Source: a virus
Lineage: Duplodnaviria > Heunggongvirae > Uroviricota > Caudoviricetes
DNA: 64,000 bases
Direction: 5' to 3' (one strand)
Virus record (IMG/VR): IMGVR_UViG_2541047759_000001
Made by a program: the position numbers and the translations under genes. This document shows positions 3,954-55,116 of the stretch, piece by piece. Under the pieces are notes generated by a model. It searched no databases, was not told where the DNA came from, and saw nothing but the letters and a program-made list of their open reading frames with translations. The stretch's first letter is position 1. Every line of letters starts with the position of its first letter.

Positions 3954-4145
3954 TTAAAATCCTGCCGGGATTTCGTTATTATCCTGGTGAATAACTTTAT
4001 CGACCGGATAACAGTTGCCTGGAATTTTCTGTTCGGTTGCTGCTGCCATACATTCCTGCATTGTTCTGTGAACACTGACTGCAATATCAACTGACTCTCC
4101 GGAAACAAGAAAAACCGTCAGAATAAGTGCAAATACTGGATTCAT
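3954..4145 (-). CDS. Small hypothetical protein with hydrophobic N-terminus (possible signal peptide)
   Basis: ATG at 4145 overlaps upstream stop in an ATGA arrangement; 'MNPVFALILTVFLVSG' hydrophobic start; Cys residues. Confidence 0.45.
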   Translation of the reverse strand: MNPVFALILTVFLVSGESVDIAVSVHRTMQECMAAATEQKIPGNCYPVDKVIHQDNNEIPAGF

Positions 4146-4330
4146 TGTGCACATCCTTTTGGCATCAGACGTAAACGGGCCAGCATTGAAACAATGCATA
4201 CTTTATTTAATAACTCCCGTTCGTGTTTTCTTTTGTTAATGGCATCTTCAGTAAATACAGGATTACTGATAGTGACACCAATTTCAAAACAACCTTCAGA
4301 CGTATTAACGTTTGGTAATAACGTTTTCAT
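4142..4330 (-). CDS. Hypothetical small protein
   Basis: 62-aa ORF with GAGGG RBS upstream of ATG at 4330; translationally coupled to the downstream small gene. Confidence 0.35.
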   Translation of the reverse strand: MKTLLPNVNTSEGCFEIGVTISNPVFTEDAINKRKHERELLNKVCIVSMLARLRLMPKGCAQ

Positions 4331-4898
4331 TATCGCGCCCTCAACAATGAGTTTTGTGATGCGGTGCCTGGTGCCTCCAGGTGACGTTAACCAGTTAACA
4401 ATTAACGCCGGATACAGAGAATCCACCCATAACACTGTTTTTGGTTTTAACTGTTCCGCGTGCGCTTAGCCGCATTCACCGCATCACAAAATTCACTTTA
4501 AAAAGGGCGGCAGAGCAGTCACGGAGTAAAACTGATACCGCCAAACGTCACCAGAAAATTGATAACAGAGGGCGTTGCAGTGGGGTTGTCACTTAAGCGT
4601 ATGGTCAACCTGACAACCCGGTGTCCTCAACGGGGGAAGGAATAACCCCGCCATACTTACCGCCGCGCCATTTCGCGGATTGCCACAACCGGAAGCGCAC
4701 GGTCGACGAAAATTTAACGACAGGCTATCTATGAACCAGCTACCTCGCCGTGCGCTTTCGCGTTATGGTCTGACTTTTCAGGGAAATATCCTTTCAGTAA
4801 ACTGTCAGTGCCGGATGCTCACCCGTGTCCGGCGCACGCACTCCACCTCACCCGTGGAGAACTCCTTAATTACCAACCTTAGCTTCGTTGGTTATCTA

Positions 4899-5117
4899 TT
4901 AACGCGGGTATGTAATCATTCTGGCAATGCTTAATGCCGCTGCTTTTTCCAGCCTGGTGATATCCTGCTCCAGAGCGGACAGATTTTCAGCCTGCTTAGC
5001 TCTGGCTTCATTAGCCCATTTCAGATCCTGCGCTGCATTAATTTTCTGGCGCATCCACTCATAAAGTTCATCATCGGTATAGTCTGGCGCGATGATGACG
5101 GGTTCTCGTTTCTGCAT
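4899..5117 (-). CDS. Hypothetical early-leftward-operon protein
   Basis: 72-aa ORF in leftward operon downstream of the cI-side regulatory region. Confidence 0.5.
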   Translation of the reverse strand: MQKREPVIIAPDYTDDELYEWMRQKINAAQDLKWANEARAKQAENLSALEQDITRLEKAAALSIARMITYPR

Positions 5118-5146
5118 ACTGATTCCTCGCGGTGCTGTTTCGCTTA

Positions 5147-5275
5147 TCAGCCGTTAGATTTTGCCGAACTGGAAAGCGCCTGTTTAAATTCGTTGAAGCT
5201 GTGAGCTTCTTCGCCTTCGGCAAGGCCTTCGAAGTATTCTTCGTAAGCCTTTTCCATGATTGTGTCAAAATCCAT
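5147..5275 (-). CDS. Small acidic hypothetical protein (42 aa)
   Basis: AGGTGAG RBS 5 nt upstream of ATG at 5275, 1 nt after the upstream gene stop; below the 60-aa ORF-track cutoff. Confidence 0.45.
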   Translation of the reverse strand: MDFDTIMEKAYEEYFEGLAEGEEAHSFNEFKQALSSSAKSNG

Positions 5276-5276
5276 A

Positions 5277-5513
5277 TCACTCACCTGAGTTTCTTTCCAG
5301 CCAGCGACGGGCACCATTTTCGGTTTTAAACGTTTTGCTTTTTGTATACGTCATTGCGGTGAAGGTGCCGTCCTGGTTTGGAAACACGCCGTACACCAGA
5401 GATTCGTTGTTGCCAAGATCGATAGTATCCATGCTGACCTCATTTCCCCTTAACGCCGGGGTAGCGGAACAAAAACCTGCTGCATAGTTATTAAAGTTGA
5501 ACCCTGCCGTCAT
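5277..5513 (-). CDS. Hypothetical early-leftward-operon protein
   Basis: 78-aa ORF, first gene of the leftward operon. Confidence 0.5.
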   Translation of the reverse strand: MTAGFNFNNYAAGFCSATPALRGNEVSMDTIDLGNNESLVYGVFPNQDGTFTAMTYTKSKTFKTENGARRWLERNSGE

Positions 5514-5638
5514 GTTCTTACGCCTCGGGCTGGCTACTTAACCCCTGACCACTGCCTGGTAACTCGAAGTATTGCCCTGCATTCTGTAGGATGGGGTGAG
5601 GGAATGAATGAAGTTTAGAAAAACGAACTTTTCAGGTC

Positions 5639-5660
5639 AATGTTTTTTTATCAAAACATT
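5639..5660. promoter_or_regulatory. Putative left operator palindrome AATGTTTT-N6-AAAACATT
   Basis: Perfect 8-bp inverted repeat between the cI 3' end and the leftward operon; same half-site as the palindrome at 6362-6380. Confidence 0.45.
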
Positions 5661-5724
5661 TTAAGCAGGCAGCTGTTAAGCCATCACCACGATGGCATAC
5701 AGTTAATCAAATAGATGAGGTTGG

Positions 5725-6363
5725 TTAAATATCTTGTTGAATTTTAAAGCATACGCCCAATATGCAAGATAGATCATCCAGCATAATTGAAGGGTAGCGA
5801 GGATTCGTGGGGACTAAAAGAATATCCGGCCCTTCTATCTCCAGTTTACGAATGACAGGTGTTGTGGTCCCTTTGGGTAAGGCAAGGACAATATTTCCTG
5901 GTTGTACGGTTCGATCGGGATCAACAAAAACTGTTGAACCATTTGGGATGGAAACTCCCCCACCAGATGTTGACATACTGTCACTCTCTAGAACAACTGC
6001 AAAGGTATTGACCGGGATTTCTCCGACAAGCTGCACACAAGAGGTTATTGAGGAATTTTTCATATAATCACTCCAGCTTGCTGCCTGCTGAAGTGATAGT
6101 AGCGGAACCGTTTTTATCGGCGGTAAAGATAGATCAAGCGAATCACCTGTATTTAACTCTCCTCCATTAAGAAGCCAATTTTCGTTTACTTTCAATATTT
6201 TTGCCAGTGAACTTATGTAACGCGAGGACGGCGCTCCTCCACCGTTCATCCATTGACTTACGGAGCCTTTTGATGCGCCAGTGCCATTGACAAGGTCTTT
6301 GCCTTTCAGGTTTAGCGCATGCATACGTTGGGTTATGCGTTCAGATATAGTTTGCTTGCTCAT
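5725..6363 (-). CDS. cI: CI-like repressor, N-terminal HTH plus C-terminal S24 LexA-like peptidase domain
   Basis: 212 aa; HTH-like 'GASKGSVSQWMNG'; C-terminal region with Ser and Lys consistent with a self-cleaving S24 domain; divergent from cro. Confidence 0.8.
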   Translation of the reverse strand: MSKQTISERITQRMHALNLKGKDLVNGTGASKGSVSQWMNGGGAPSSRYISSLAKILKVNENWLLNGGELNTGDSLDLSLPPIKTVPLLSLQQAASWSDYMKNSSITSCVQLVGEIPVNTFAVVLESDSMSTSGGGVSIPNGSTVFVDPDRTVQPGNIVLALPKGTTTPVIRKLEIEGPDILLVPTNPRYPSIMLDDLSCILGVCFKIQQDI

Positions 6364-6380
6364 GTTTTGATTTTAAAACA
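6362..6380. promoter_or_regulatory. Putative right operator palindrome ATGTTTT-N5-AAAACA overlapping the cI start
   Basis: Inverted repeat sharing half-sites with the 5639-5660 palindrome; lies in the cI-cro divergent intergenic region. Confidence 0.45.
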
Positions 6381-6396
6381 CAGATGGTTTTGTTTC

Positions 6397-6424
6397 TTGA
6401 CTTTCTTTGGTTTTGATTATTAAA
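6397..6424 (+). promoter_or_regulatory. Candidate pR-like promoter for cro
   Basis: TTGACT at 6397-6402 and TATTAA at 6419-6424, 16-bp spacer, about 30 nt upstream of the cro ATG. Confidence 0.35.
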
Positions 6425-6454
6425 CTTTTGACGTTCAGTTTTATGGAGCGACTC

Positions 6455-6697
6455 ATGAAAAAATCAGAAGTATTAGGCTATTTTGGCGGAGTTGTTAAAA
6501 CAGCCGCAGCTCTAGGAACGTCAAAAACCACAGTCAGCATGTGGGGGGAAGAGGTTCCGTGGAAATGGGCGTTGCTAATTCAGGCAGTCACTGCCGGGGC
6601 GCTCAAATATGAGTTACACATACCGACGGTTGTCATTCCCGGTTCTGATCATAATCCGCCTTCTAACCAAGGGGGGATTCATGAAAATCAAGCATGA
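6455..6697 (+). CDS. cro: Cro-like HTH regulator
   Basis: GGAG 6 nt upstream of ATG at 6455; 'GYFGGVVKTAAALGTSKTTVSMW' HTH; divergent from cI. Confidence 0.7.
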   Translation: MKKSEVLGYFGGVVKTAAALGTSKTTVSMWGEEVPWKWALLIQAVTAGALKYELHIPTVVIPGSDHNPPSNQGGIHENQA

Positions 6698-7106
6698 ACA
6701 CATCCGCATGGCGATGAATGCCTGGGCGCATCCGGACGGCGAAAAAGTACCGGCTGCGAAAATTACCAAAGCGTATTTCGAGCTGGGAATGACGTTCCCG
6801 GAACTGTATGACGACAGCCATCCGGAAGCCCTGGCTCGCAATACCCAGAAAATTTTCCGCTGGGTAGAGAAAGACACCCCTGATGCAGTTGAAAAAATTC
6901 AGGCGTTGTTACCAGCGATCGAAAAGGCAATGCCACCTTTGCTGGTGGCCAGAATGCGCAGCCACAGTTCAGCTTATTTTCGGGAGCTGGTGGAGACGCG
7001 GGAGCGACTGGTGAGAGACGCTGATGATTTTGTCGCAGTGGCAATCGCCGGTTTCAATCAGATGAACCGTGGTGGCCCGGCAGGAAATGCTGTGGCAGTA
7101 CATTGA
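6681..7106 (+). CDS. Early regulatory protein, YdaT/CII-position protein
   Basis: 141-aa ORF directly downstream of cro, overlapping its end; function assigned by position only. Confidence 0.5.
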   Translation: MKIKHEHIRMAMNAWAHPDGEKVPAAKITKAYFELGMTFPELYDDSHPEALARNTQKIFRWVEKDTPDAVEKIQALLPAIEKAMPPLLVARMRSHSSAYFRELVETRERLVRDADDFVAVAIAGFNQMNRGGPAGNAVAVH

Positions 7107-7177
7107 CTGACAATAGCCATATCGAATCGCTTCCGGCAACTCGTGAGTAAAAAGATTCGGTATCAGAAGAGGTGAGT

Positions 7178-8248
7178 ATGGCTAACGCCTGGCTCAGATT
7201 ATGGCATGACATGCCAAATGACCCTAAGTGGCGAACAATTGCCAGGGTGTCAGGGCAGCCAATTGCAACAGTGATGGCAGTGTATATCCACCTCCTGGTG
7301 AGCGCGTCACGAAATGTCACGCGAGGTCACATTGATGTCACGACAGAAGATTTGGCAAGTGCGCTCGACGTGACAGAAGAGGTAATTGATTCAATTTTGC
7401 AGACGATGCAGGGGCGGGTACTTGATGGTGATTTAATCACTGGATGGGAAAAACGCCAGGTGCTGAAAGAGGACAACGGCAATATTTCGCAAACCGCAAA
7501 ATCTCCGGCAGAGCGCAAGAGGGCGCAGCGAGAGAGGGAAAGAAAGCGGGAACAAAATGGCGATTGTCACGGCGAGTCACGAAATGTCACGCACATGTCA
7601 CGACGAGTCACGACAGATAAAGATACAGATAAAGATACAGATCAAGAAGATCAAAACACTATGGTCCATGGCGTAAAAAACGCCACGAACCAGGCAGGGG
7701 ATGTTCAGACCGTCACTCCTGGCCAGCCCGCAGGCACGACACCGGAAGCCGATTCAGCGTATGCGCTGAAAGCCGATTCGGGCGCTGTGCAGCAGGTGAT
7801 GACCGCAAGGCAGGAGCAATCACACCAACTTCAGCAGCCTGAAGCCGATTCCGCCATTCAGCGGGAAGCCGATCGGGTAGTCCCGGAAAACACCGGGCAG
7901 CCTGTGGGACGAGTGGATTATCCTGATGTGTTCGAACAGGTCTGGCGGGAATACCCGTTGCGTGCCGGGGCAAACCCGAAGAAATCCGCTTTCAGTGCCT
8001 GGAAAGCCAGATTACGCGAGGGGGTGCCACCAGAGGCCATGCTGGATGGCGTGAGGCGTTACGCAAGATACCTTGCGGCTACCGGGAAAACGGGAACGGA
8101 ATTTGTTCAGCGAGCGACGACGTTTTTTGGACCGGACCGGAATTTTGAAAACCCCTGGCTGCTCCCGGTAAGCGGCACGAACAACCAGCGTTGTGTGAAT
8201 CATATTTCTGAACCGGATAACGAAATTCCGCCGGGCTTCAGGGGGTAA
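7178..8248 (+). CDS. Replication initiator, replisome-organiser type, with internal iterons
   Basis: AGAGGTGAG RBS; N-terminal 'WLRLWHDMPNDPKW' domain; two clusters of GTCACG repeats inside the coding region, as in lambda O. Confidence 0.75.
   Translation: MANAWLRLWHDMPNDPKWRTIARVSGQPIATVMAVYIHLLVSASRNVTRGHIDVTTEDLASALDVTEEVIDSILQTMQGRVLDGDLITGWEKRQVLKEDNGNISQTAKSPAERKRAQRERERKREQNGDCHGESRNVTHMSRRVTTDKDTDKDTDQEDQNTMVHGVKNATNQAGDVQTVTPGQPAGTTPEADSAYALKADSGAVQQVMTARQEQSHQLQQPEADSAIQREADRVVPENTGQPVGRVDYPDVFEQVWREYPLRAGANPKKSAFSAWKARLREGVPPEAMLDGVRRYARYLAATGKTGTEFVQRATTFFGPDRNFENPWLLPVSGTNNQRCVNHISEPDNEIPPGFRG
7306..7650. repeat. Origin-like iteron clusters (GTCACG at about 10-bp spacing) followed by AT-rich GATAAAGATACAG repeats
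   Basis: Cluster 1 at 7306-7345 (4 copies), cluster 2 at 7566-7615 (5 copies), AT-rich repeat at 7616-7650. Confidence 0.65.
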
Positions 8249-8288
8249 GTGTTAATTTCTGGTCATGAGGTAATTTTCAGGAGGGCTT

Positions 8289-8711
8289 GTGGCAAAAGTT
8301 TTTACACAAGAAGAGCGGGAAAAAATTAAAGGACAGGTTCTTGAACTCGTACGCCAGAGTGGGCGCGAGACGTTACGACAACTGGAAGCTAAAACTGGGG
8401 CAACAAGATATCTGATGAGCGTTCTGGCCAGAGAGCTGGTTGCCAGTGGCGATGTATACAATTCTGGCTACGGGTTATTCCCGTCTGAACAGGCTCGTAA
8501 AGACTGGCAAAATGCCCGCAAAAAATTATCGAGGGCAAAGCTGAAGAAACCGGTTGTGGTTGATCCGGACCTTATCTGGTCGTTACCTGACGGAGAAATA
8601 CGTCGCTACGACAGTCGCCTAAACATAATCTGTCGCGAGTGCCGGAAGAGTGAAGCTATGCAGCGTGTACTGGCTTTCTATCAGGGTAATTTTCAGGAGG
8701 CGGTACTGTGA
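8289..8711 (+). CDS. Hypothetical phage protein
   Basis: 140-aa ORF with AGGAGG RBS before a GTG start. Confidence 0.55.
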   Translation: MAKVFTQEEREKIKGQVLELVRQSGRETLRQLEAKTGATRYLMSVLARELVASGDVYNSGYGLFPSEQARKDWQNARKKLSRAKLKKPVVVDPDLIWSLPDGEIRRYDSRLNIICRECRKSEAMQRVLAFYQGNFQEAVL

Positions 8712-8768
8712 GTGAAATTAGCTATCAGGCTTCAATTACCGCTGGCATTCGCATCAAAGGAGAGGAGC

Positions 8769-9125
8769 ATGGAAATAAAACCAGAGGATGAGTTAAGCAA
8801 TATCGTTTTATTTCCGGTAAAAGAGGATGACCCTCGTAATCAGGTTAATTTTCTTTATGAGCCATCGGAAAGACCATATTGTCATCACGCCTCTGTCCGG
8901 GTTGACGAAAAAGAGCGTCAGGTCCGCTGTAAAATCTGCGGTGCAGTTGTGGAGCCATTTGACTGGATGCTCTCTGTGGCGAAAAGAGAAAGCAGACTGG
9001 CAGATGATGTAAGGCTCTTGCGTCAGGAGGAGCGGGAAAGGCGAAAAAATATAGAAAAGCTAATTCAGATTGAGCGTAACGCGAAAGCGCGGATACGCAG
9101 GGCGACAAAATCCAGAACTGAATAA
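8769..9125 (+). CDS. Hypothetical zinc-ribbon protein
   Basis: AGGAGAGGAG RBS before ATG; 'CHH...CKICG' Cys/His cluster. Confidence 0.55.
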   Translation: MEIKPEDELSNIVLFPVKEDDPRNQVNFLYEPSERPYCHHASVRVDEKERQVRCKICGAVVEPFDWMLSVAKRESRLADDVRLLRQEERERRKNIEKLIQIERNAKARIRRATKSRTE

Positions 9126-9218
9126 TTAAATTTAGCTCTGTTAAAAATTTAATCCTTAACCGGAGGGATTTCTGCACCCTCAGAACATCAGGAGGCCGCC
9201 CGAAAGGGCGGTAGTTAA

Positions 9219-9401
9219 ATGCGAAAGTTTAAAATAATTATTGAAACGGGAATAGCCGGTGGAGATTTCGAGGATGAATTCGAAGTGGATGATGATGCGA
9301 CGCCTGATGAAATACATGACGAAGCAAAAGATATTTTCTTTAACTACTGCAATTACTCATATCACGAAATAAAAGACAAAGAGGAAGAACAAAATGGCTG
9401 A
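9219..9401 (+). CDS. Small acidic hypothetical protein
   Basis: 60-aa ORF, strongly acidic. Confidence 0.4.
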   Translation: MRKFKIIIETGIAGGDFEDEFEVDDDATPDEIHDEAKDIFFNYCNYSYHEIKDKEEEQNG

Positions 9402-9570
9402 TTTTGGTTCAACTAAATACAACGTCAGTTTTGAAGAATGGCATGAACTGTTAATGGACTATGCAGAGTTACGTGGTGGCAGTGCTGCTGATGCTGAAGC
9501 ATGGCGTGATGATTATGAAGCAGGAAAAACTCCGGTCGAAGCATATTGTGATGAGTGGGGCGATGAATGA
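9394..9570 (+). CDS. Small acidic hypothetical protein (58 aa)
   Basis: ATG at 9394 overlaps the upstream stop; ORF read directly from sequence, below the track cutoff. Confidence 0.4.
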   Translation: MADFGSTKYNVSFEEWHELLMDYAELRGGSAADAEAWRDDYEAGKTPVEAYCDEWGDE

Positions 9571-10053
9571 GCGAGGTTAATTATCAGGAAGGGCATGAAA
9601 CGGCGGGGCAAGCAAAAACAGTGGCATGGCGATATCGCTACGTGAAAAAAAAGGCGTTACGGACTTTCAGGGGAAGTAGTGGTCTGGTGACTGGAAATAT
9701 GTACCGAAAAAAGAGGATTGTAACGACAGGCCGAACTATGAAATTCAGGCCTTATTCACTGCCTCGCCAGTCCCGGTTACATCAGAAGAACTGGTTAAAG
9801 CTGTGCACTTTTATGAACAACTAAAACGCGAAAATCCACCAGCATCCGGAAACCTGATTACAGATTCCCAGATAAGGCAATGAGCTACCTGGCGCAGAAC
9901 GGGCTGATAAGTATGGGGAATGTTTTACGATGAATATTTAGACTAAAGAGTTTGTAACGCTATGTAAGTGATTTTTTCTGGTTTAGATATTTATATGTCC
10001 GGCCAAACTGAGGTGTGTTTAAATGTAATTGCACATTGATTGTAGGAGGAATA

Positions 10054-10233
10054 ATGAAAAACGCATTGCAGTTTTTGTTTGTTGCGTTCTGGTTGTTCGT
10101 ATCATGTATGCCCATCATCTTCACAGCAAGGTATATGGAAAAAGTTGATGTTTTGATATTAATATTTGGATATATAAATGCCCTTTTTTTAGGGGTGTTC
10201 ATGGCGGTCATGTGCATTGAATACTGGCGGTAA
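10054..10233 (+). CDS. Small hydrophobic membrane protein in AT-rich segment
   Basis: AGGAGG RBS 5 nt upstream of ATG at 10054; two predicted hydrophobic helices; low-GC surroundings. Confidence 0.5.
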   Translation: MKNALQFLFVAFWLFVSCMPIIFTARYMEKVDVLILIFGYINALFLGVFMAVMCIEYWR

Positions 10234-10491
10234 ATACAGCGAACGCCATTGGTTTAGTTGGATATTTACTGTGCCGGACAAAAACGGTTTGCGGGGAAAT
10301 CTTAGTTAAGTAGAATGACTGCGGGTGCTTGAGGCTATCTGTCTCAGGCATGAACACCAAAAGGCAGATAGAGAAAAGCCCCAGTTAACATTACGCGTCC
10401 TGCAAGACGCTTAACATTAATCTGAGGCCATATCTATGCGACACATAGAGATTAGCCTCTTACGGACCGAAAGGTCAAGGAGAAGCAGGCT

Positions 10492-10647
10492 ATGAAGCAG
10501 CAAAAGGCGATGTTAATCGCCCTGATCGTCATCTGTTTAACCGTCATAGTGACGGCACTGGTAACGAGGAAAGACCTCTGCGAGGTACGAATCCGAACCG
10601 GCCAGACGGAGGTCGCTGTCTTCACAGCTTACGAACCTGAGGAGTAA
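10492..10647 (+). CDS. hok: Hok/Gef family type I toxin
   Basis: 51-aa translation MKQQKAMLIALIVICLTVIVTALVTRKDLCEVRIRTGQTEVAVFTAYEPEE matches the Hok/Gef family; structured leader upstream and terminator downstream. Confidence 0.85.
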   Translation: MKQQKAMLIALIVICLTVIVTALVTRKDLCEVRIRTGQTEVAVFTAYEPEE

Positions 10648-10717
10648 GAGACCTGGCGGGGGAGAAATCCCTCGCCACCTCTGATGTGTCAGGCATCCTC
10701 AACGCACCCGCACTTAA

Positions 10718-10742
10718 CCCGCTTCGGCGGGTTTTGTTTTTT
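10718..10742 (+). terminator. Intrinsic terminator after hok
   Basis: CCCGCTTCGGCGGG hairpin followed by TTTTGTTTTTT. Confidence 0.7.
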
Positions 10743-10814
10743 CCTGGCATTCTGGTTTACAATTCGCACGTCAGCCTGAACACCTGACACCTGCTGCGCC
10801 AGCAGAGAAAACAG

Positions 10815-11087
10815 ATGGCGCACAAAACCAAATTTCACAATTCTGATACCGACCTTGCCATCCGGCATGAGCGGCGTTCACACGCATTTAAAACCGACTG
10901 GTACCAACACCCACCATGTACTGAAGAACAGGCCGAATGGCTGATTCATTCTTACCGCAGGCGCGGGTTCGAGGTTAAGAAAGCTCTCAGTCTCGACTAT
11001 CGGCACTGGATAATCTCTGTCAGGCTGCCTTATTCCGAACGCCCACCACGTCCGTCCCGCACTTTCCAGCAACGGATCTGGAGGTAA
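10815..11087 (+). CDS. Hypothetical phage protein
   Basis: 90-aa ORF directly upstream of the DUF968 gene. Confidence 0.55.
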   Translation: MAHKTKFHNSDTDLAIRHERRSHAFKTDWYQHPPCTEEQAEWLIHSYRRRGFEVKKALSLDYRHWIISVRLPYSERPPRPSRTFQQRIWR

Positions 11088-11088
11088 C

Positions 11089-12147
11089 GTGCGGGTATTA
11101 CTTAGACCTGTTCTGGTGCCTGAGCTTGGGCTGGTGGTCCTTAAGCCGGGCCGTGAATCCATACAGATATTTCATAATCCTCGAGTGCTGGTGGAGCCGG
11201 AACCGAAAAGCATGTGCGGCCTGCCATCCGGAGTCGTCCCTGCCGTTCGCCAGCCGCTGGCGGAGGATAAATCATTACTGCCATTTTTCAGCAATGAGCG
11301 TGTGATTCGTGCTGCTGGCGGCGCTGGTGCACTGTCTGACTGGCTGTTGCGCCATATTAAATCCTGCCAGTGGCCACACGGTGATTATCACCACAGTGAA
11401 ACCGTCATTCACCGTTATGGTACCGGCGCAATGGTGTTGTGCTGGCACTGCGACAACCAGTTGTGTGACCAGACCTCAGAATCACTTGAGCAACTTGCTC
11501 ACCAAAACTTGTCAGCATGGATGATTGACGTCATCCGTCACGCAATCAGCGGTACGCAGGAGAGGGAGTTATCGCTGGCCGAATTATCCTGGTGGGCGGT
11601 CTGCAATCAGGTGGCTGATGCGCTTCCGGAGTCTGTATTGTGTCGTTCACTGGGATTACCGGTGGAAAAAATCCGCTCCGTATACCGTGAGAGTGACATC
11701 GTACCGGGAGAACAGACTGCCACCAGCATACTGAAGCAGCGCACAAAAAATATTGCGCTGCCACTTCACGTCCACCAGCAACAGCCCCCACTCCAGGAAA
11801 AGACGTTAGTAAGCATCGCCGTTGATCCGGAGTCTCCGGCTCAGTATCTCCAGCGCCAGAAACCACAACGGGAAGAGATGCCTGTATACACGCGCTGGGT
11901 AAAAACGCAGAAATGCATGACGTGCGGTAATCAGGCAGATGATCCGCATCACATCATTGATCATGGCCTGGGAGGTATGGGAACAAAGGCTGATGATTTG
12001 TTTGTTATTCCGCTGTGCCGTAAATGTCATAACGAACTGCACGCCGGGGTAAAAGATTTTGAAGAAAAACACGGCAGCCAGCTGTTGTTGCTGATTCGTT
12101 TTTTAATGCACGCGAGAAATTCGGGTGTCCTGAAGTGGAAAGCATGA
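11089..12147 (+). CDS. DUF968-type phage protein with C-terminal Cys/His cluster
   Basis: 352 aa; C-terminal 'CMTCGN...HHIIDHG...CRKCHNELH' zinc-binding or HNH-like motif; GGAGG RBS with GTG start. Confidence 0.7.
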   Translation: MRVLLRPVLVPELGLVVLKPGRESIQIFHNPRVLVEPEPKSMCGLPSGVVPAVRQPLAEDKSLLPFFSNERVIRAAGGAGALSDWLLRHIKSCQWPHGDYHHSETVIHRYGTGAMVLCWHCDNQLCDQTSESLEQLAHQNLSAWMIDVIRHAISGTQERELSLAELSWWAVCNQVADALPESVLCRSLGLPVEKIRSVYRESDIVPGEQTATSILKQRTKNIALPLHVHQQQPPLQEKTLVSIAVDPESPAQYLQRQKPQREEMPVYTRWVKTQKCMTCGNQADDPHHIIDHGLGGMGTKADDLFVIPLCRKCHNELHAGVKDFEEKHGSQLLLLIRFLMHARNSGVLKWKA

Positions 12148-12510
12148 ATGACTGAACGCATAGAATTTGTTTTGCCTTACCCGCCGACGGTGAATACCTA
12201 CTGGCGACGTCATGGCAATACGTATTTCATCTCGGAGGCCGGAAAGCGTTATCGCCGTGATGTGGCGCTAATTGTTCGCCAGCAGCGGCTGAAATTAAAC
12301 CTGTCCGGAAGGCTGGCGATAAAGGTGATTGCAGAGCCACCGGATAAGCGTCGTCGCGACCTGGACAATATCCTGAAAGCACCGCTGGATGCGCTGACGC
12401 ATGCGGGAGTGTTAATGGACGATGAGCAGTTTGATGAAATCAATATCGTTCGTGGTCAGCCAGTATCTGGTGGACGTCTGGGGGTGAAGATTTACCCCAT
12501 AATGCATTAA
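12148..12510 (+). CDS. rusA: Holliday junction resolvase RusA
   Basis: 120 aa; 'FVLPYPPTVNTYWR' and 'RRDLDN' motifs characteristic of RusA. Confidence 0.85.
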   Translation: MTERIEFVLPYPPTVNTYWRRHGNTYFISEAGKRYRRDVALIVRQQRLKLNLSGRLAIKVIAEPPDKRRRDLDNILKAPLDALTHAGVLMDDEQFDEINIVRGQPVSGGRLGVKIYPIMH

Positions 12511-12524
12511 GAGCAGGTCAAAAA

Positions 12525-13346: not shown

Positions 13347-13351
13347 CAAGG

Positions 13352-13379
13352 TTGATTTTTCCGGAATCTGTGGTAAATT
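13352..13379 (+). promoter_or_regulatory. Candidate late promoter pR'
   Basis: TTGATT and TAAATT with 16-bp spacer directly after Q; short transcript to the tR' hairpin. Confidence 0.5.
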
Positions 13380-13427
13380 CGTCATAACAATGGGCTTTTT
13401 ATGCCTGACGTTAGAAGAGTTTCTACA

Positions 13428-13455
13428 ACCCGCCGCCGAGCGGGTTTTTTATTGC
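13428..13455 (+). terminator. tR'-like intrinsic terminator
   Basis: ACCCGCCGCCGAGCGGGT hairpin followed by TTTTTTATT. Confidence 0.7.
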
Positions 13456-13489
13456 GGAATTAATTACGGACCGTTATTATTCTGCTCCC

Positions 13490-14989: not shown

Positions 14990-15249
14990 TTAGTTTCCTT
15001 GTTTATGTCTTGCTGGTGATGTTCTGAAAAGTATAAATGATATTTTTGAATGTAAACCATAGAGCAGAATTATTTTTCTGATGTTGTTTATTGTTTATTT
15101 AAATGCAGGGTGGTTTATATCTCGTCTTGTAGTTTATCCATGCATATCTGCTTGATGATGAGGTTTTTATTTAAGGTATGGTTTTGTGTTTTTTCTGTAT
15201 TACATGTCAGGTATTTTAAAGAATTATTTTTCAGATGGTGGAAAGAACC

Positions 15250-17211: not shown

Positions 17212-17567
17212 TAAAAAAAGCCGCCAGCGGCAGGAATGGAAGCTGGCGGAGGTAATCCCAATGGAGAATGTAAAGAAAAGATGCTTTCGACATCAATCAT
17301 TTCTAAATGAAAACAGTTCTCATTGTCAACCATAACGGTAAGAAATTATGACATTTATTCATCAGGTAATGCTGTACTTCTGTATGGCAGTCTGTGTTAT
17401 GTATCTTCTTTCGGGTGGGTACAGGGCAGTGCGCGATTTCTGGCGCAGGCAGATTGATAAAAGGGCCGCTGAGAGAATCAGCGCCAGTCAGTCAGCCGGA
17501 AGCAAACCCGAAGATCCGCTCATTCCGTAGTCACTTTCTTGACAACACCTTTCAACGAGAAAATCCC

Positions 17568-17813
17568 ATGTCAGAAATCACATCCCTGGTCACTGCTGAG
17601 GCAGTGAAGGAAGTCCTGCGCTCTGAAGAAGTCCTGAGCGCACTGAAACAGAAACTCCGCCAGAACCTTGAGTCGCGTCTTGATGCAGAAGTGGATGCCA
17701 TTCTGGATGAGCTGCTGGGCGTACCAGCGGTTCCGGAGCCGGAAGGTATCGCGGGTGACGGGAGTGCTTCAGATGGCGGTGAACCCACACCTGACAGCGA
17801 CATGATGATGTAA
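17568..17813 (+). CDS. Small acidic hypothetical protein
   Basis: 81-aa ORF between the esterase and holin genes; weak RBS. Confidence 0.4.
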
Positions 17814-17889
17814 GCCTGCGCAAGGGACCATCGGTGTGTGCCGGTGGTCTTTATATTGTTGTGAGCTTCCGGATAACGGGAGACGGGGT

Positions 17890-18105
17890 ATGTACCAGAT
17901 GGAAAAAATCACAACAGGTGTGTCATACACCACGTCAGCGGTGGGAACGGGCTACTGGTTCCTGCAGTTGCTGGACAGGGTTTCCCCGTCTCAGTGGGCG
18001 GCAATAGGCGTGCTGGGGAGTCTGCTGTTTGGGCTGCTGACGTACCTGACTAACCTGTATTTCAAAATCAAAGAGGACCGGCGTAAGGCGGCGCGGGGAG
18101 AGTAA
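17890..18105 (+). CDS. S: Class II holin, S21-type pinholin with dual start
   Basis: Two close Met starts (MYQMEKI); '[51 protein letters not shown]' matches the S21 family. Confidence 0.75.
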
Positions 18106-18109
18106 AGTG

Positions 18110-19000
18110 ATGAATAAAAAATATGAACTGGTTGTTAAGGGGATAAATAATTACGGGGATAAGGTTACTGTTACTGTGAAGTCGGAAGGTGACGGGCAAG
18201 CGTCGCTGTTGTTGCCAGATGTGGCGATTAGTCTTGACCGTACTGAAGGTGCCACGCTGGAGTTTTACGAAGCTGAGGCGAAAAAGCAGGCGAAGCAGTT
18301 TTTCATGGATGTTGCTGCCGGGTTATGTGAATGGAACGAACCGTTGCCGGAAAAGCGCCCCGTAATTTTAGAGGCGCAGGATGTGTTGATAACCTACAAA
18401 GGAAAGCTACCGGGAAGAATTACTTGTTCTCTGAAGATGCCGCCGTCAACACTGCGGTCAGAAAAAGATGATGTTGAATCACGTATTGAAAAACTGGAGA
18501 GCTACGTCGTTGAGCTGAATAAGAAATGGTCGATATTGGTGCCTTCTGGCGATGAAAAGCAGTTTGCTGCGTTTGACGATTATTGTCGGAAAGTGATGAG
18601 CAGAAATCTCGCAGAGTGTTTCAGTATTCATAATGATAATTTCAGTGACCCGGAATGGGAGTGTAACCGGCCATCCTTTGTTGTATCCGGTGATGCTGGG
18701 AAAATAACCATCTCAGAAAATGGGAAAGTAACACCTCCATCGCACCAGCACAGTGAGGAGCTCATTGAATTTGCCATTGATTACCTGAAGAACAATAAAA
18801 AGCAGGGGCTGATGAAGCGCGTTGGCCGTTGCATGGGATATCTTCAGGTAGCCGCTGAGATTGAAGCGCTGGCCAGTGGTGCTGATAAGGATGCAATTGT
18901 GCGGGAGGCTCTTCTTCGTGATTTTAATACTCCACCCTTTAAAAAAGTGCCGGCTTACTGGCTTCATCCGGGGCTGACTTATCTTAAAGTGCGTATTTAG
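18110..19000 (+). CDS. Unrecognised 296-aa soluble protein inserted between holin and endolysin
   Basis: GGGGAGAG RBS, ATG 5 nt after the holin stop; no TM segment or signal peptide; no family recognised. Confidence 0.7.
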   Translation: MNKKYELVVKGINNYGDKVTVTVKSEGDGQASLLLPDVAISLDRTEGATLEFYEAEAKKQAKQFFMDVAAGLCEWNEPLPEKRPVILEAQDVLITYKGKLPGRITCSLKMPPSTLRSEKDDVESRIEKLESYVVELNKKWSILVPSGDEKQFAAFDDYCRKVMSRNLAECFSIHNDNFSDPEWECNRPSFVVSGDAGKITISENGKVTPPSHQHSEELIEFAIDYLKNNKKQGLMKRVGRCMGYLQVAAEIEALASGADKDAIVREALLRDFNTPPFKKVPAYWLHPGLTYLKVRI

Positions 19001-19036
19001 TGGGCCAGGGACAGCGGCTGAATATTTAATATATCC

Positions 19037-19570
19037 ATGAACACCAAAATCAAATACGGCCTGTCGGCTGCCGTTCTGGCGCTGATTGCCGCTGGTGCGC
19101 CTGCGCCTGACATTCTCGACCAGTTTCTGGATGAAAAGGAAGGCAACCACACCACGGCATACCGTGATGGTGCAGGTATCTGGACCATCTGCCGTGGTGC
19201 CATCATGGTGGATGGCAAACCTGTCGTTCCGGGCATGAAGTTGTCGAAGGAAAAATGCGACCAGGTTAACGCCATTGAGCGTGATAAAGCGCTGGCGTGG
19301 GTGGAGAAAAACATCAGAGTGCCGCTGACCGAACCCCAGAAAGCGGGGATCGCGTCATTCTGTCCGTACAACATTGGTCCCGGTAAGTGTTTCCCGTCGA
19401 CGTTTTACAGACGAATTAATGCTGGTGATCGAAAAGGTGCCTGCGAAGCGATTCGCTGGTGGATTAAGGACGGTGGCAGAGACTGCCGTATTCGTTCAAA
19501 CAACTGTTACGGTCAGGTATCCCGTCGTGACCAGGAGAGCGCGCTGGCGTGCTGGGGTATCGACAGATAA
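19037..19570 (+). CDS. R: SAR endolysin (phage lysozyme with N-terminal signal-anchor-release domain)
   Basis: 'GLSAAVLALIAAGAPA' SAR segment then 'DEKEGNHTTAYRDGAGIWTICRG' lysozyme catalytic region. Confidence 0.85.
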   Translation: MNTKIKYGLSAAVLALIAAGAPAPDILDQFLDEKEGNHTTAYRDGAGIWTICRGAIMVDGKPVVPGMKLSKEKCDQVNAIERDKALAWVEKNIRVPLTEPQKAGIASFCPYNIGPGKCFPSTFYRRINAGDRKGACEAIRWWIKDGGRDCRIRSNNCYGQVSRRDQESALACWGIDR

Positions 19571-19726
19571 GCAGAATATTTTGCTGAAAAATGAGGAATG
19601 GCCACGCGGGCGGATAACACGAAATCCTGCGAACTGGCGAAACGTAAGTGAATAAAAGTAAAAACCCCGTTTGTTGGCACCAAGCGAGGTTTTGTGTTTC
19701 TGACCTTGAGTAAGGCAAGGGAGAAC

Positions 19727-19909
19727 ATGGCGAAGTGTAAACGAATTCTGTTGAGGTTGACTATGAAAAATGGCCTTGAACTGAAAGCGCCTGTAACTGA
19801 TGACATCAGCAGAGCACTGGCTTTTGCCATTAAGTGGGTGGCGGTCGGTGTTGCTGTGTCCCCGATGCTGTATGGGCTGGCAAAACTGGTCATTGCGTTG
19901 AAATCGTGA
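19727..19909 (+). CDS. Small protein with C-terminal hydrophobic segment, between endolysin and Rz
   Basis: AAGGGAG RBS before ATG at 19727; C-terminal '[22 protein letters not shown]' hydrophobic stretch. Confidence 0.5.
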
Positions 19910-19923
19910 AGGGAGGATTAAGC

Positions 19924-20055
19924 ATGTCAGACAAACTCATAACGCTGGCGAAGATCCTCTGTGTAATTGTCGGCATTTCATTTTCACTAATGCTGGTTGC
20001 TCTTTTTCTTTCCATGGCCTGGATGATGTTGTCTTCGTCGGGGTTGCTGGGGTGA
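19924..20055 (+). CDS. Small membrane peptide (43 aa), between endolysin and Rz
   Basis: GGGAGG RBS before ATG at 19924; single TM '[26 protein letters not shown]'. Confidence 0.5.
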
Positions 20056-20525
20056 ACATAAACCGAATGCTTTCCGCGTTTATCGTTATTCTGCTGGTGG
20101 CCTGTGGTGCGCTGTGGATGGCAACAGACCATTACCGTGATAACGCGATTACCTACAAAGCGCAGCGCGATAACAAAGCCAGTGAACTGAAGCTGGCGAA
20201 CGCAACCATTACTGATATGCAGGTGCGCCAGCGCGATGTTGCTGCGCTCGATGCAAAATACTCGAGGGAATTAGCCGATGCGAGAGCTGAAAATGAAACT
20301 CTTCGCGCTGACGTTGCCGCTGGTCGTAAGCGCCTGCGGATCAACGCCACCTGTCCAGGCTCCGTGCGTGAAGCCCCCACCACCTCCGGCGTGGATAATG
20401 CAACCGGCCCCCAACTGGCAGACACCGTTACACGGGATTATTTCACCCTCAGAGAGCGGCTGATGACGATGCACAAGCAACTGGAAGGGGCACAGGACTA
20501 TATCCGCACTCAGTGCCTGAAATAA
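20052..20525 (+). CDS. Rz: Rz i-spanin (start may be the ATG at 20067)
   Basis: N-terminal TM then '[14 protein letters not shown]...[25 protein letters not shown]' matching lambda Rz. Confidence 0.85.
20278..20463 (+). CDS. Rz1: Rz1 o-spanin lipoprotein, embedded in Rz in the +1 frame
   Basis: Lipobox 'LVVSAC', proline-rich '[22 protein letters not shown]' as in lambda Rz1. Confidence 0.8.
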
Positions 20526-20835
20526 GTTTTGTTGATGCGCCGTATCGTCGCTATATTCCCTCATTAACAGAGACCGCAGCCCGACAGGGAGACTCCTCTG
20601 CGCGAGTGTGCGGGGATAATTAAAAACGATGCACACCGGGTTTTTACCGCGTTAATGATTCGCGGGTTTATCCCGGTGCGATGGTGGAAGAAACAGGAAG
20701 CTGTATTACAGAAAGTGCTACTACTGTATCCCGATGCGATGTATGTAATGTGAGTCAGATAATGGCACAGGATGTGGTGATGTGGCAGTCTGGAACACAG
20801 GATATATTGTCAGAATAAGACCCGTAGGAATAAAA

Positions 20836-21162
20836 ATGAAAAGACGCCTTTTACTACTTTTTCTGTTATCTGTCCTGGCAGTGGGATGCTCGCAGCAAAA
20901 AGCTGATGAGCCCCGGCAATTAGTGACGGTGTATCCACGATATCCGGAATATGCTGCAGCAAATTATATCAAGGGGCTGGTTGAGGTTAAGTTCGATATT
21001 GGTGCTGATGGGACTGTGACACGGATCGTTTTTCTCCGCTCAGAGCCTCATAATTTGTTTCGTGATGAAGTGGTGAAGGCCATGGCGAAATGGCGATTTG
21101 AAAAGAATCGCCCCTGTCAGGGAGTGAAGAGACAATTTATCTTTACGCCGTCACGTCCTTGA
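20836..21162 (+). CDS. Lipoprotein moron downstream of the lysis cassette
   Basis: Signal peptide with lipobox 'LAVGCSQ'; 108 aa. Confidence 0.6.
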   Translation: MKRRLLLLFLLSVLAVGCSQQKADEPRQLVTVYPRYPEYAAANYIKGLVEVKFDIGADGTVTRIVFLRSEPHNLFRDEVVKAMAKWRFEKNRPCQGVKRQFIFTPSRP

Positions 21163-21284
21163 TGCTTCCAGGTAGAGAGGGGCTGGACGCAGGAGAAAAA
21201 TGAAAGAGCCAGCGGTTATATTTTTGTCATGGCTGACGAGGAATGATGGAAGAAGGCGTTGTATGCCACACAACGCCTCACTGT

Positions 21285-21464
21285 TCATTTCTTCTTTTTC
21301 TCTGGTGGAACCCGATGAATAAGAGTTGCACTGGTTTCCGATGAGATGGCGATATACTCGGGCAAAGTATGCTGGCAGTTTTCCAACTGGTCAAAAATAC
21401 CTGCTCTCGTCTGTTGCAATGCCTGCAGCATGCGGCGGCAATGCGCCTTGCTTTTACTAACCAT
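21285..21464 (-). CDS. Small hypothetical protein
   Basis: GAGGAAGGA RBS directly upstream of ATG at 21464; 59 aa. Confidence 0.4.
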   Translation of the reverse strand: MVSKSKAHCRRMLQALQQTRAGIFDQLENCQHTLPEYIAISSETSATLIHRVPPEKKKK

Positions 21465-21525
21465 CTTTCCTTCCTCTATCAGTCGCTGCGTGAACTCATC
21501 ATGTAATACCAGGTAAATGCGGATG

Positions 21526-21780
21526 TTATCGGTTTTGGCTACGCAGCATAGTACAAAACGGACAGGTGCATCCCGGGACGGGGGAGGCGTCACATGTCCC
21601 TGTGATGGTTGTTCCGGGTAATGCACTGTGTGGGGCATAAAAATGTCCGATAATTTTACTTTCTACCGCAGTTAGTTGATTCGTTGGTCCTGGTAGCACA
21701 TTGGGCGAGGATTTAAATGCCAGGCAACTGAAGGATGATGTTGCAAGGGAGATAGCGAGAATATTTCTGATTTTCATTTG
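21526..21780 (-). CDS. Small secreted hypothetical protein
   Basis: N-terminal signal peptide 'MKIRNILAISLATSSFSCLA'; Cys-rich C-terminus. Confidence 0.4.
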   Translation of the reverse strand, partial: QMKIRNILAISLATSSFSCLAFKSSPNVLPGPTNQLTAVESKIIGHFYAPHSALPGTTITGTCDASPVPGCTCPFCTMLRSQNR

Positions 21781-21925
21781 ATGATGCCTCTGTGTGAAAT
21801 GACGGTAAACGACGCACTTGTGCCGGCACATAATAGCAAGCACCATAATAGATCAGATTCGATTCTTGCTGTAAGTGATAATTATTCTCGTTTTCGGGTC
21901 CTTTCCGTCGATCCAACAGGTTACG

Positions 21926-21937
21926 GGGCGGCGACCT
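21926..21937 (+). other. Lambda-type cosN (GGGCGGCGACCT) with flanking cosQ-like and cosB-like sequence
   Basis: Sequence 'CAGGTTACGGGGCGGCGACCTCGCGGGTTTTCGCTATTTATGAAAATTTTCCGG' matches the lambda cohesive-end region as I recall it; lies upstream of nu1. Confidence 0.85.
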
Positions 21938-22120
21938 CGCGGGTTTTCGCTATTTATGAAAATTTTCCGGGAACCATGTCCGGTTTCTCTTCAAGTTAAC
22001 TATATGAAAAATAAAAAAAGAGGTCTTCTGTGAACCGGGCATGCACAAAAAATAGACATGTAAGCCGGACATGACCGGTTTTGTTGTGATTGTGAAGTGA
22101 GAGTTTTTGCGAGGTGAGGA

Positions 22121-22630
22121 GTGGCTACGCAGACTGAAGTTGCCAGGCATTTAAGTCTGACCGATCGCCAGCTTCGCAGATTGCAGAAATTGCCGGGTGC
22201 CCCGATATCGAATAAGCGAGGGCAACTGGATCTGGATGCCTGGCGCGATTTTTACATATCGTATCTGAGAAGAAGTAAAAACGATGTGCCTGATGGCGAT
22301 AGCGAAGACGACTATGAGGAGAAATTGCTTATTGCCAGATGGGAACTGACAGCAGAACAGGCTGTTACACAGCAGTTAAAAAATGAGGTGTCAAAAGGAA
22401 AACTTATTGATACCGGGTTCTGTATTTTTGCTCTCAGCAAGCTGGCAATGGCGTTATCCAGTACGCTTGATTCCATCCCTTTATCCATGCAGCGACAGTT
22501 TCCTGATTTAACACCGCGCCATCTTGACCATCTGAAAACCCTTATTGCGAAGGGGGCAAATCAGTGTGCGCGGGCGGGGGATAAATTACCGGATTTACTC
22601 GATGAATATATCAGAGCAACAACTGAATAA
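22121..22630 (+). CDS. nu1: Terminase small subunit, Nu1-like
   Basis: N-terminal HTH and 'FCIFALSKLAMALSSTLDSIPLSMQRQFPDL' resemble lambda Nu1; GTG start with GAGGTGAGGA RBS. Confidence 0.8.
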   Translation: MATQTEVARHLSLTDRQLRRLQKLPGAPISNKRGQLDLDAWRDFYISYLRRSKNDVPDGDSEDDYEEKLLIARWELTAEQAVTQQLKNEVSKGKLIDTGFCIFALSKLAMALSSTLDSIPLSMQRQFPDLTPRHLDHLKTLIAKGANQCARAGDKLPDLLDEYIRATTE

Positions 22631-24530
22631 TATGATGAGTGCTGTCACAACAGCATTACAGCCCCTGATAAGGGCATTGCCGGTGACGCCAGTTGAATGG
22701 GCTGATCAAAATTATTATCTGCCTAAAGAATCTTCATATGGTGAGGGAGAATGGAAAACGCTGCCGTTCCAGATCGCCATCATGAACAGCATGGGGAATG
22801 ATCAGATCCGGACTGTTAATCTGATTAAATCTGCCCGTGTTGGCTATACAAAGATGTTGCTGGGGGTGGTCGGGTATTTTATTGAGCATAAATCCCGAAA
22901 CAGTCTGCTTTTTCAGCCCACGGATTCTGCCGCTGAAGATTTTATGAAGTCTCACGTGGAGGCGACGATTCGGGATGTTCCCTGCCTGAAAAAACTTTCT
23001 CCATGGCTGGGGCGTAAACATCGTGACAATACTCTCACGCTGAAACGCTTTTCATCGGGTGTGGGCTTCTGGTGCCTGGGCGGCGCTGCCGCCAAAAACT
23101 ACCGTGAAAAATCCGTGGACGTGGTCTGCTATGACGAACTTTCCTCGTTCGAACCGGATGTCGAAAAAGAGGGTTCGCCAACCCTGCTTGGGGATAAACG
23201 TATTGAGGGCTCTGTATGGCCCAAATCCATTCGCGGCTCGACGCCTAAAATCAAAGGCACCTGCCAGATCGAAAAAGCGGCCAACGAGTCGGCGCATTTC
23301 ATGCGTTTTTATGTGCCCTGCCCACACTGTGGGGAGGAGCAGTATCTGAAATTTGGCGATGAATCCACGCCTTTTGGCCTTAAATGGGAGAAGGACAGCC
23401 CCGAAAGCGTTTTCTACCTCTGTGAACATCATGGCTGCGTGATCCATCAGTCTGAGCTTGACCAGAGCAACGGGCGGTGGATCTGTGAAAACACGGGGAT
23501 GTGGACCCGTGACGGTCTGACGTTTTTCAGCGCCGCGGATAATGAAATTCCGCCGCCGCGCTCCATCACGTTCCATATCTGGACAGCGTACAGTCCATTC
23601 ACCACCTGGGTACAGATAGTCTATGACTGGCTGGATGCACTGAAAGATCCCAACGGCCTGAAAACCTTTGTGAACACCACGCTGGGCGAGACCTGGGAAG
23701 AGGCCGTGGGCGAAAAACTCGATCACCAGGTACTGATGGATAAGGTCGTGCATTACACGGCGGCGGTGCCTGCCCGGGTGGTTTATCTGACGGCGGGCAT
23801 TGACTCGCAGCGAAACCGTTTTGAGATGTATGTCTGGGGATGGGCACCGGGAGAGGAAGCTTTTCTGGTGGATAAAATCATCATTATGGGGCGTCCTGAT
23901 GAGGAAGAGACGCTGTTACGTGTGGATGCGGCGATCAACAAAAAATACCGCCATGCGGATGGCACCGAAATGACCATTTCCCGTGTCTGCTGGGACACCG
24001 GGGGGATCGATGGTGAAATCGTCTACCAGAGGTCAAAAAAACACGGTGTTTTCCGTGTGCTGCCGGTAAAAGGCGCGTCTGTCTATGGCAAGCCGGTGAT
24101 CACCATGCCGAAAACCCGCAATCAGCGGGGCGTTTATCTGTGTGAAGTGGGGACGGACACCGCAAAAGAAATTCTCTATGCCCGTATGAAAGCCGAGCCC
24201 ACGCCTGCGGATGAAGCCACGTCGTATGCCATCCGTTTTCCTGATGATCCGGAGATTTTTTCGCAGACAGAGGCGCAGCAACTGGTCGCGGAAGAGCTTG
24301 TGGAGAAGTGGGAAAAAGGAAAGATGCGTCTGCTGTGGGATAACAAAAAGCGGCGTAACGAAGCGCTGGACTGCCTGGTGTATGCCTACGCGGCATTACG
24401 TGTGTCCGTGCAACGCTGGCAGCTTGATCTGGCTGTACTGGCAAAATCCCGGGAAGAAGAGACGACCCGGCCAACCCTTAAAGAACTGGCAGCGAAGCTG
24501 TCCGGAGGAGTGAATGGTTACAGTCGCTGA
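22602..24530 (+). CDS. A: Terminase large subunit, lambda A-like
   Basis: Extensive similarity to lambda gpA, e.g. 'WADQNYYLPKESSYGEGEWKTLPFQ', 'FMRFYVPCPHCGEEQYLKFGDE'. Confidence 0.9.
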   Translation: MNISEQQLNNMMSAVTTALQPLIRALPVTPVEWADQNYYLPKESSYGEGEWKTLPFQIAIMNSMGNDQIRTVNLIKSARVGYTKMLLGVVGYFIEHKSRNSLLFQPTDSAAEDFMKSHVEATIRDVPCLKKLSPWLGRKHRDNTLTLKRFSSGVGFWCLGGAAAKNYREKSVDVVCYDELSSFEPDVEKEGSPTLLGDKRIEGSVWPKSIRGSTPKIKGTCQIEKAANESAHFMRFYVPCPHCGEEQYLKFGDESTPFGLKWEKDSPESVFYLCEHHGCVIHQSELDQSNGRWICENTGMWTRDGLTFFSAADNEIPPPRSITFHIWTAYSPFTTWVQIVYDWLDALKDPNGLKTFVNTTLGETWEEAVGEKLDHQVLMDKVVHYTAAVPARVVYLTAGIDSQRNRFEMYVWGWAPGEEAFLVDKIIIMGRPDEEETLLRVDAAINKKYRHADGTEMTISRVCWDTGGIDGEIVYQRSKKHGVFRVLPVKGASVYGKPVITMPKTRNQRGVYLCEVGTDTAKEILYARMKAEPTPADEATSYAIRFPDDPEIFSQTEAQQLVAEELVEKWEKGKMRLLWDNKKRRNEALDCLVYAYAALRVSVQRWQLDLAVLAKSREEETTRPTLKELAAKLSGGVNGYSR

Positions 24531-51315: not shown

Positions 51316-51341
51316 TAATTGTGATGACCGGAATCAAAATT

Positions 51342-55115: not shown

Positions 55116-55116
55116 T

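Follow-up and report, generated by a model that had tools for sequence, protein, structure and literature searches.

A recurring DNEIP-coding word in a lambdoid prophage of Escherichia coli: probably three separate coding stretches, one of them in a DnaT-type tail

In a stretch of 64,000 nt recorded as a virus (IMG/VR record IMGVR_UViG_2541047759_000001; hereafter, the window), a short word coding for the peptide DNEIP or a close variant of it recurs in three genes: a YdfD-like gene (site A), a prophage replication gene (site B) and the gene of a large terminase subunit (site C). The question raised by this recurrence is whether the three sites share a common element, such as the module-junction sequence that was suggested in the original prediction, or merely resemble each other. 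The comparisons described below argue that the three sites are, in all likelihood, independent in-frame coding stretches in three unrelated proteins, with no common element behind them. Their likeness at the DNA level would result from the same few amino acids being written in common E. coli codons. The components are of known kinds, i.e., the DnaT-type tail of a phage replisome organizer, the tail of YdfD and a terminase loop. The genes and sites concerned are the following (positions are those of the window).

3954..4145, minus strand: YdfD-like DUF1482 gene, 63 aa (Pfam PF07358; annotated by PGAP on the identical sequence as DUF1482 family protein)
Reaching 4199, minus strand: open reading frame (ORF) of 81 aa, a mechanical ORF that is longer than the YdfD-like gene
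3954..3986, minus strand: site A, the codons for QDNNEIPAGF plus stop, C-terminal tail of the YdfD-like protein (14-mer match at 3966-3979)
7178..8248, plus strand: prophage replication initiator/replisome organizer, 356 aa (PHROG 3729; alternative start GTG at 7172)
8186..8248, plus strand: 63-nt segment encoding the 20-residue DnaT-type tail QRCVNHISEPDNEIPPGFRG and its stop codon, flanked by recurrent mosaic joints
8214..8233, plus strand: site B, 20-nt core CGGATAACGAAATTCCGCCG (P-D-N-E-I-P-P)
22602..24530, plus strand: large terminase subunit of the lambda gpA family (PHROG 15; PGAP annotation)
23536..23555, plus strand: site C, 20-nt core CGGATAATGAAATTCCGCCG (A-D-N-E-I-P-P), within a terminase loop that varies

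The pattern GATAAYGAAATYCCG occurs exactly twice in the window, at 8216-8230 and 23538-23552, both on the plus strand, and sites B and C agree over 19 of 20 nt, as CGGATAA[C/T]GAAATTCCGCCG (8214-8233 versus 23536-23555). Site A reads CAG GAT AAT AAC GAA ATC CCG GCA GGA TTT TAA on the minus strand (QDNNEIPAGF and stop). It resembles the other two over ATAACGAAATCCCG alone (13 of 14 nt at 3966-3979) and has more than four mismatches to the 20-mer core. The claim that one pattern encodes DNEIP at all three sites thus holds for B and C but not for A, which lies outside the pattern and in which an extra Asn codon gives DNNEIP. The placement of the sites, as it was first described, stands: two of the three are at the C-termini of unrelated proteins, i.e., the YdfD-like protein (...NNEIPAGF) and the replication protein (...DNEIPPGFRG), and the third is inside the large terminase subunit, at residue 313 of 642.

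For the specific 14-mer, 0.03 matches per window are expected (own site counted) and 3 were observed, which is unexpected, yet any word could have drawn notice, so that a null covering all words is needed. Among 200 dinucleotide shuffles, 22.5% contained a 19/20 pair somewhere in the window (mean 0.255). The same was found in 18.5% of 200 shuffles in which codons were permuted inside ORFs and intergenic sequence was masked, given that real intergenic repeats inflate the unmasked null. A match of this quality is expected in about one of every five windows of 64 kb, and the repeat is thus not above chance. The real window holds three minimal 20-21-nt pairs of this kind, beside genuine longer repeats. 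Shuffles gave 21 ± 5 independent 14-mers that recur at least twice more with no more than one mismatch, compared with 124 in the real window. At the protein level, for which the nulls used greedy ORF calls on the window, DNEIPP is one of about 10 non-homologous hexapeptides common to two window proteins, while residue-shuffled sets had 6.9 ± 3.0 hexapeptides common to two different proteins. LLPVSG and PNDPKW, both common to the exonuclease and the replication protein, are further coincidences of this sort. The proposed recurrence above chance was accordingly not borne out by either the 19/20-pair shuffles or the 14-mer count. Occurrence at chance frequency is the outcome that the original prediction had itself named as speaking against the motif.

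The copy in the terminase gene is found in a part of the protein that varies among relatives. The window terminase is 66% identical to N15 gp2 and lambda-type A over 99% of its length, and its DNEIPP is flanked by two blocks that are conserved in gpA-type terminases, G.WTRDG and S.TFHIWTAYSPFTTW. The same position is occupied by GEEIEPP in lambda A, NAEIDPP in N15 gp2, NEPIRTP in LESphi3 and GERIPCP in PhAER-5, and DNEIPP is not conserved in the gpA family as represented by this alignment. Judged from the aligned sequences, site C is a lineage-specific variable loop between two conserved terminase blocks. Upstream of it, positions 22684-22698, some 85-95 nt from the start of the large terminase gene, form a recurrent breakpoint in many lambda-like phages, at which Nu1 and the terminase N-terminus swap together.

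At site B, the word is part of the tail peptide SEPDNEIPPGFRG of the replication protein. This protein matches PHROG 3729 (replication initiation protein) over its whole length (residues 3-358, E 6.9e-257), its match to TIGR01714, which concerns the N-terminal region of replisome organizers, is weak (E 0.015; 15.4 bits, cutoff 49.8), and its relatives are annotated as DNA replication protein O, phage replisome organizer or Primosomal protein I. The last 24 residues (335-358) match positions 156-179 of the 179 positions in the NCBIfam DnaT model NF002770. BLASTP of the replication protein against DnaT of E. coli K-12 (translated from dnaT) yielded a match of 15/25 (E 1e-7) at the C-terminal end alone. 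Within this region, QRCVNHISEPDNEIPPGFRG aligns without gaps with the last 20 residues of DnaT, both being extreme C-termini, and the only relevant sequence matches in the PDB are the tails of the DnaT chains 6aep, 2ru8 and 9zbt_D. The residues R..N..SEPD..IPPGFRG are invariant at the C-terminus among the replication protein (Rep) of the window, Primosomal protein I of mEp460, protein O of phiSTEC1589 and DnaT; the Reps of mEp460 and phiSTEC1589 are 24 and 48% identical to that of the window, respectively. For the Rep of E. coli CH4784, BLASTP similarity is confined to the last 20 aa, which are 95% identical, and the same DUF977 gene comes next.

The likeness to DnaT does not extend beyond the tail in these searches. 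The whole-protein match to NF002770 is below cutoff (19.3 bits versus 201), the N-terminal domain of DnaT was not found in the replication protein by BLASTP, which matches the tail alone, and hhalign aligns the family profile only weakly with DnaT (30 columns, probability 6%). In the replication protein, the fold of its C-terminal domain was not recovered as that of DnaT; in the AlphaFold model, four helices with pLDDT above 90 come before a tail of low confidence (pLDDT of 59-65). On this evidence, the tail is common to the replication protein and DnaT, and any shared fold would be putative.

Comparison of the 3′ ends of the three replication genes and dnaT revealed that the amino acids are fixed while the codons vary (CCG/CCT, GAT/GAC and CCG/CCA/CCT), with further synonymous variation in the same alignment (GGC/GGT/GGA, AGG/AGA and GGG/GGA). 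Given that the peptide is fixed while third positions vary, selection would act on the peptide. The DNE part of the word is itself variable in these tails, being DTE in mEp460, phiSTEC1589, O157 and CH4784 and DSQ in DnaT, so that the match of site B with the terminase hangs on a variable residue. When the C-terminal 127 aa (window 7865-8245) were searched exhaustively, 4100 representative relatives of the helical domain were returned. Among the best 150 of these 4100, 17 end in a tail of the form P[DE]xx[IV]PxGF[RK]G, including IPAGFRG (P0175 and P0186), IPDGFRG and IPSGFRG, and one more ends in IPDGFTGYLP. Many of the best 150 end in another recurrent tail, [IL]P[DE]W[AL][KR] (P0176, P0193, P0211, P0247, P0257, P0271, P0297 and others), which suggests that replisome organizers may have docking peptides that can be interchanged and are possibly specific to the host.

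O-like or DnaD-like phage replisome organizers with a DnaT C-terminal motif, such as DopC, are already known (Brezellec et al. 2017, PMC5509034). When DnaT lacks residues 154-179, its apparent Kd for dT30 is doubled and its Hill coefficient is lower (DnaT84-153 versus DnaT84-179; PMC4132743). Binding of DnaT to PriA/PriB and the handoff of single-stranded DNA in the preprimosome have also been described, and recent preprimosome structures treat the DnaT domain and linker and leave the extreme tail undiscussed (PMC13377028). The tail at site B may act as the DnaT tail does, either in cooperative assembly or oligomerisation or in docking to a host replication partner. It is similar to the C-terminal tip of SSB in that both are short C-terminal peptides of a replication protein, acidic and then hydrophobic, that are preceded by a flexible stretch. 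The SSB consensus is DDDIPF in contrast to IPxGFRG, so the comparison is an analogy only, and use of the same binding pockets is without support.

The surroundings of the replication gene also resemble those of dnaT in some relatives, in which the replication gene directly precedes a DnaC-like gene, as dnaT precedes dnaC in the host. In O157:H7 and phiSTEC1589, a DnaC-like ATPase (MKN..) starts 7-10 nt past the stop codon of the tail, and this junction and the host dnaT-dnaC junction are alike, with TAA..ATGAAAAAC in both (loci compared: window 8246-9125; L125 2479-3229; L138 2372-3125; L002 2976-2982). In the window prophage, the replication gene is followed by a DUF977 gene and a zinc-ribbon ORF, without a helicase loader. 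From residue 158 onward (window position about 7650), the replication protein of O157:H7 has 90% identity to that of the window, and before this residue the two are unrelated.

If the word marked module junctions, homology between related genomes should end at or near the sites. Hits in E. coli genomes were sampled evenly, with 60 records per site (60 of 4119 for site B), which is the least biased view, and gave the following results.

Site A, query 3400-4500: most of the partial hits begin at 3856 or 3869 (exonuclease start, intergenic), about 100 nt from the motif
Site B, query 7600-8720: of 60 hits, 21 begin at 8186, 7 end at 8246 and 7 begin at 8280/8290
Site C, query 23000-24100: 59 of 60 hits span the whole 1.1 kb

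The joints around site B are thus 28 nt upstream (8186) and 13 nt downstream (8246) of the motif, none is within it, and the hits that begin at 8280/8290 do so at the next gene after the replication gene. Searches of phage databases concur: hits start at 8186 (mEp460) and about 8280-8290 and end at about 8685-8694, and the terminase has a joint at 22684-22698. When viral contigs were scanned with the 16-mer GGATAAYGAAATYCCG, at least 120 stretches matched, and the 121 occurrences among the matches listed comprise 58 Rep tails and 32 terminases, all orthologous, together with 4 YdfD variants and 27 unrelated contexts. Among these listed matches, the flanks in the Rep, terminase and YdfD classes are identical well past the motif. 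BLAST of the scanned viral loci against the window gave recurrent ends at 3856, 6676, 8693-8700 and 22684, and not at the motif.

The modular theory of lambdoid phages is said to be that of Susskind and Botstein, and mosaic joints were reportedly described by Hendrix and colleagues. The window is similar to such lambdoid mosaics in that homology ends abruptly at 3856/3869, 8186, 8246, 8280/8290, 8693-8700 and 22684. It differs in that the DNEIP word is not itself a boundary sequence, and only site B is within 30 nt of a joint. The suggestion that the motif marks module junctions therefore fails for A and C and is retained for B only in the sense that joints flank it, which is explained by the conserved tail and not by the DNEIP word. 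As DNA, the motif is not conserved, given that synonymous positions vary and that the relatives mostly have DTEIPP or DSQIPP. As far as the alignments indicate, the 63-nt tail segment is an island of similarity between variable modules. A peptide kept by selection would leave just such an island at 8186-8248, where homology with relatives starts or stops.

Among the alternatives to three independent stretches, the one that survives best concerns site B only: the 63-nt segment could serve as a recombination linker, i.e., a homology patch through which Rep bodies and downstream genes are exchanged. The frequent starts at 8186 and ends at 8246 (21 and 7 of the 60 hits, respectively) are what such a patch would produce. 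So are the gene arrangements on its two sides. CH4784 and mEp460 have Rep bodies before the tail that are unrelated to that of the window and retain, at about 90% nucleotide identity, the tail together with the DUF977 gene after it, while the O157:H7 and phiSTEC1589 relatives keep the C-terminal half of Rep and the tail and have the DnaC-like ATPase instead of DUF977 next. The same pattern would arise, however, if modules were joined by illegitimate recombination and selection then kept the products with an intact tail, and the third codon positions in the segment are unconserved, so that nothing points to selection on the DNA. The linker is also silent on sites A and C, which are away from the joints, and the DNEIP word itself varies in relatives (DTEIP and DSQIP). 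We regard this explanation as possible but doubtful.

The second alternative links sites A and B through their peptides. The YdfD-like protein of about 63 aa is a clear member of its family (85.8 bits against Pfam PF07358, cutoff 25), with an N-terminal hydrophobic segment and two cysteines, C32 and C45, that are invariant in the alignment. It is 87% identical to and of equal length with the K-12-type YdfD, a DUF1482 lysis protein of the Qin prophage, from which its tail differs by N/I and F/L, such that YdfD of K-12 ends in the studied L63 and the window protein in F. Deletion of 1, 2 or 5 C-terminal residues of YdfD, or the L63A substitution, is reported to abolish its lethal effect, and IspG is its reported target (PMC8835842). 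Among 120 close representatives, the tail is mostly DNNEIPAGL or DNIEIPAGL, some have a KTAP extension and a minority have the terminal F; none of the close YdfD representatives examined has RG after the tail. As a genome search with YdfD gave close relatives alone, YebW, its K-12 paralogue (41% identity), was taken as a distant comparison. YebW ends in ...WRPAQEYGDF and has no such tail, from which it follows that the tail is subfamily-specific, and DN[NI]EIPAG[LF] is not conserved across the whole DUF1482 family. It should be noted that four viral contigs (L017, L023, L103 and L113) encode a YdfD tail with a single Asn, ...HQDNEIPAGF, representing a one-codon indel polymorphism.

The likeness between this tail and that of the replication protein is the sole part of the finding that has some statistical weight, and it is here that several points weigh against reading the sites as unrelated. 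The two tails agree at 6 of 7 positions (NEIPxGF), within three residues of the C-terminus, and any tail pair that good was found in only 3.8% of residue-shuffled proteomes. In addition, the shuffles are simple nulls, and neither the partner nor the exact role of the DnaT-type tail is established in the papers on DnaT cited here (PMC4132743, PMC13377028). The ydfD gene is absent from the greedy ORF set, so the tail-pair null was computed without YdfD and the A-B pair was judged against that null. At the level of the family, the likeness is weaker: the common YdfD tail in L gives 5/7, which is reached by 66% of shuffles. Only one other tail pair of the window reaches that quality: a TonB-family prophage ORF (20782-21162) and a small ORF (57661-57942) of an additional element described below have FIFTPS near their C-termini, with 6/7 tail identity; this pair could be due to chance or be a homology remnant.

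From this likeness, one might propose a short linear motif by which the YdfD-like tail (..NNEIPAGF) mimics the DnaT/Rep tail (..IPxGFRG) and competes for a host partner. The six C-terminal identities out of seven (P about 0.04 under residue shuffling), the variation at the middle position of IPxGF in real DnaT-type tails, among which IPAGFRG exists, and the reported functional requirement for the YdfD C-terminus (PMC8835842) would all agree with mimicry. Set against them are the terminal L of most YdfD members, the lack of RG in all of the close representatives, the tail-less YebW and the fact that the published target of YdfD is IspG (PMC8835842). Furthermore, the codons of A and B after GAA differ at all four comparable positions (ATC/ATT, GCA/CCG, GGA/GGC and TTT/TTC), and thus nothing suggests an exchange of DNA or a shared DNA ancestry. 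Such mimicry is therefore very unlikely.

A functional site at the DNA level present in three copies, such as a protein-binding or regulatory site, is hardly credible: the repeat itself is all that speaks for it (0.03 expected and 3 observed for the specific 14-mer) and falls to chance level once all words are allowed, every copy lies in coding sequence and is read in the frame of the same peptide, strand and gene context differ among the copies, synonymous positions vary in relatives, and lambda and N15 lack the terminase copy.

The window that holds the three sites is a segment of an E. coli chromosome with a lambdoid prophage, which occupies position 1 to about 46.2 kb between potC and potB; the host genes from potBA to phoQ come after it. 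The chromosome of E. coli EcPF5, among others, is 100% identical to the first 25 kb, and beyond about 31 kb the window differs from that strain. The order of the prophage genes is integrase, exonuclease, ydfD-dicB-ydfCBA, repressor/cro, replication gene, lysis genes, terminase, head genes and tail genes. Between dicB and ydfC, positions 4582-4678 match a "dicF-like region" of phage P1 and its relatives, and the gene for the small RNA DicF probably lies at about this place.

Compared with EcPF5, the window also has an 11.4-kb insertion (51171-62545) between roxA and phoQ, which is flanked by a 37-nt direct repeat (51284-51320 and 62436-62472). Its products include an integrase, a primase-helicase of the D5 type, an SSB with the ending ...DNIPF, a major capsid protein of the lambda-E type and a decoration protein of the gpD type. 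The sequence immediately upstream of the small terminase gene of the prophage (21919-22013) is present in it as copies of 42-95 nt. By its gene content, the insertion looks like a capsid-encoding phage satellite with a cos-like sequence common to the neighbouring prophage.

Taken as the three-site motif that was originally posed, the recurrence is a coincidence with no new element behind it. Were IPxGF(RG) a portable docking motif of DnaT and prophage Reps, with the ..EIPAGF of YdfD as a truncated competing copy, then competition for it would link prophage-induced killing to the replication-restart machinery; we consider this highly improbable. The remainder is modest and largely known: lambdoid prophage Reps with unrelated bodies carry the 20-residue tail of DnaT, and the segment that encodes it is a frequent mosaic boundary. 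The phage Reps thereby offer natural domain-swap material for study of the DnaT tail.

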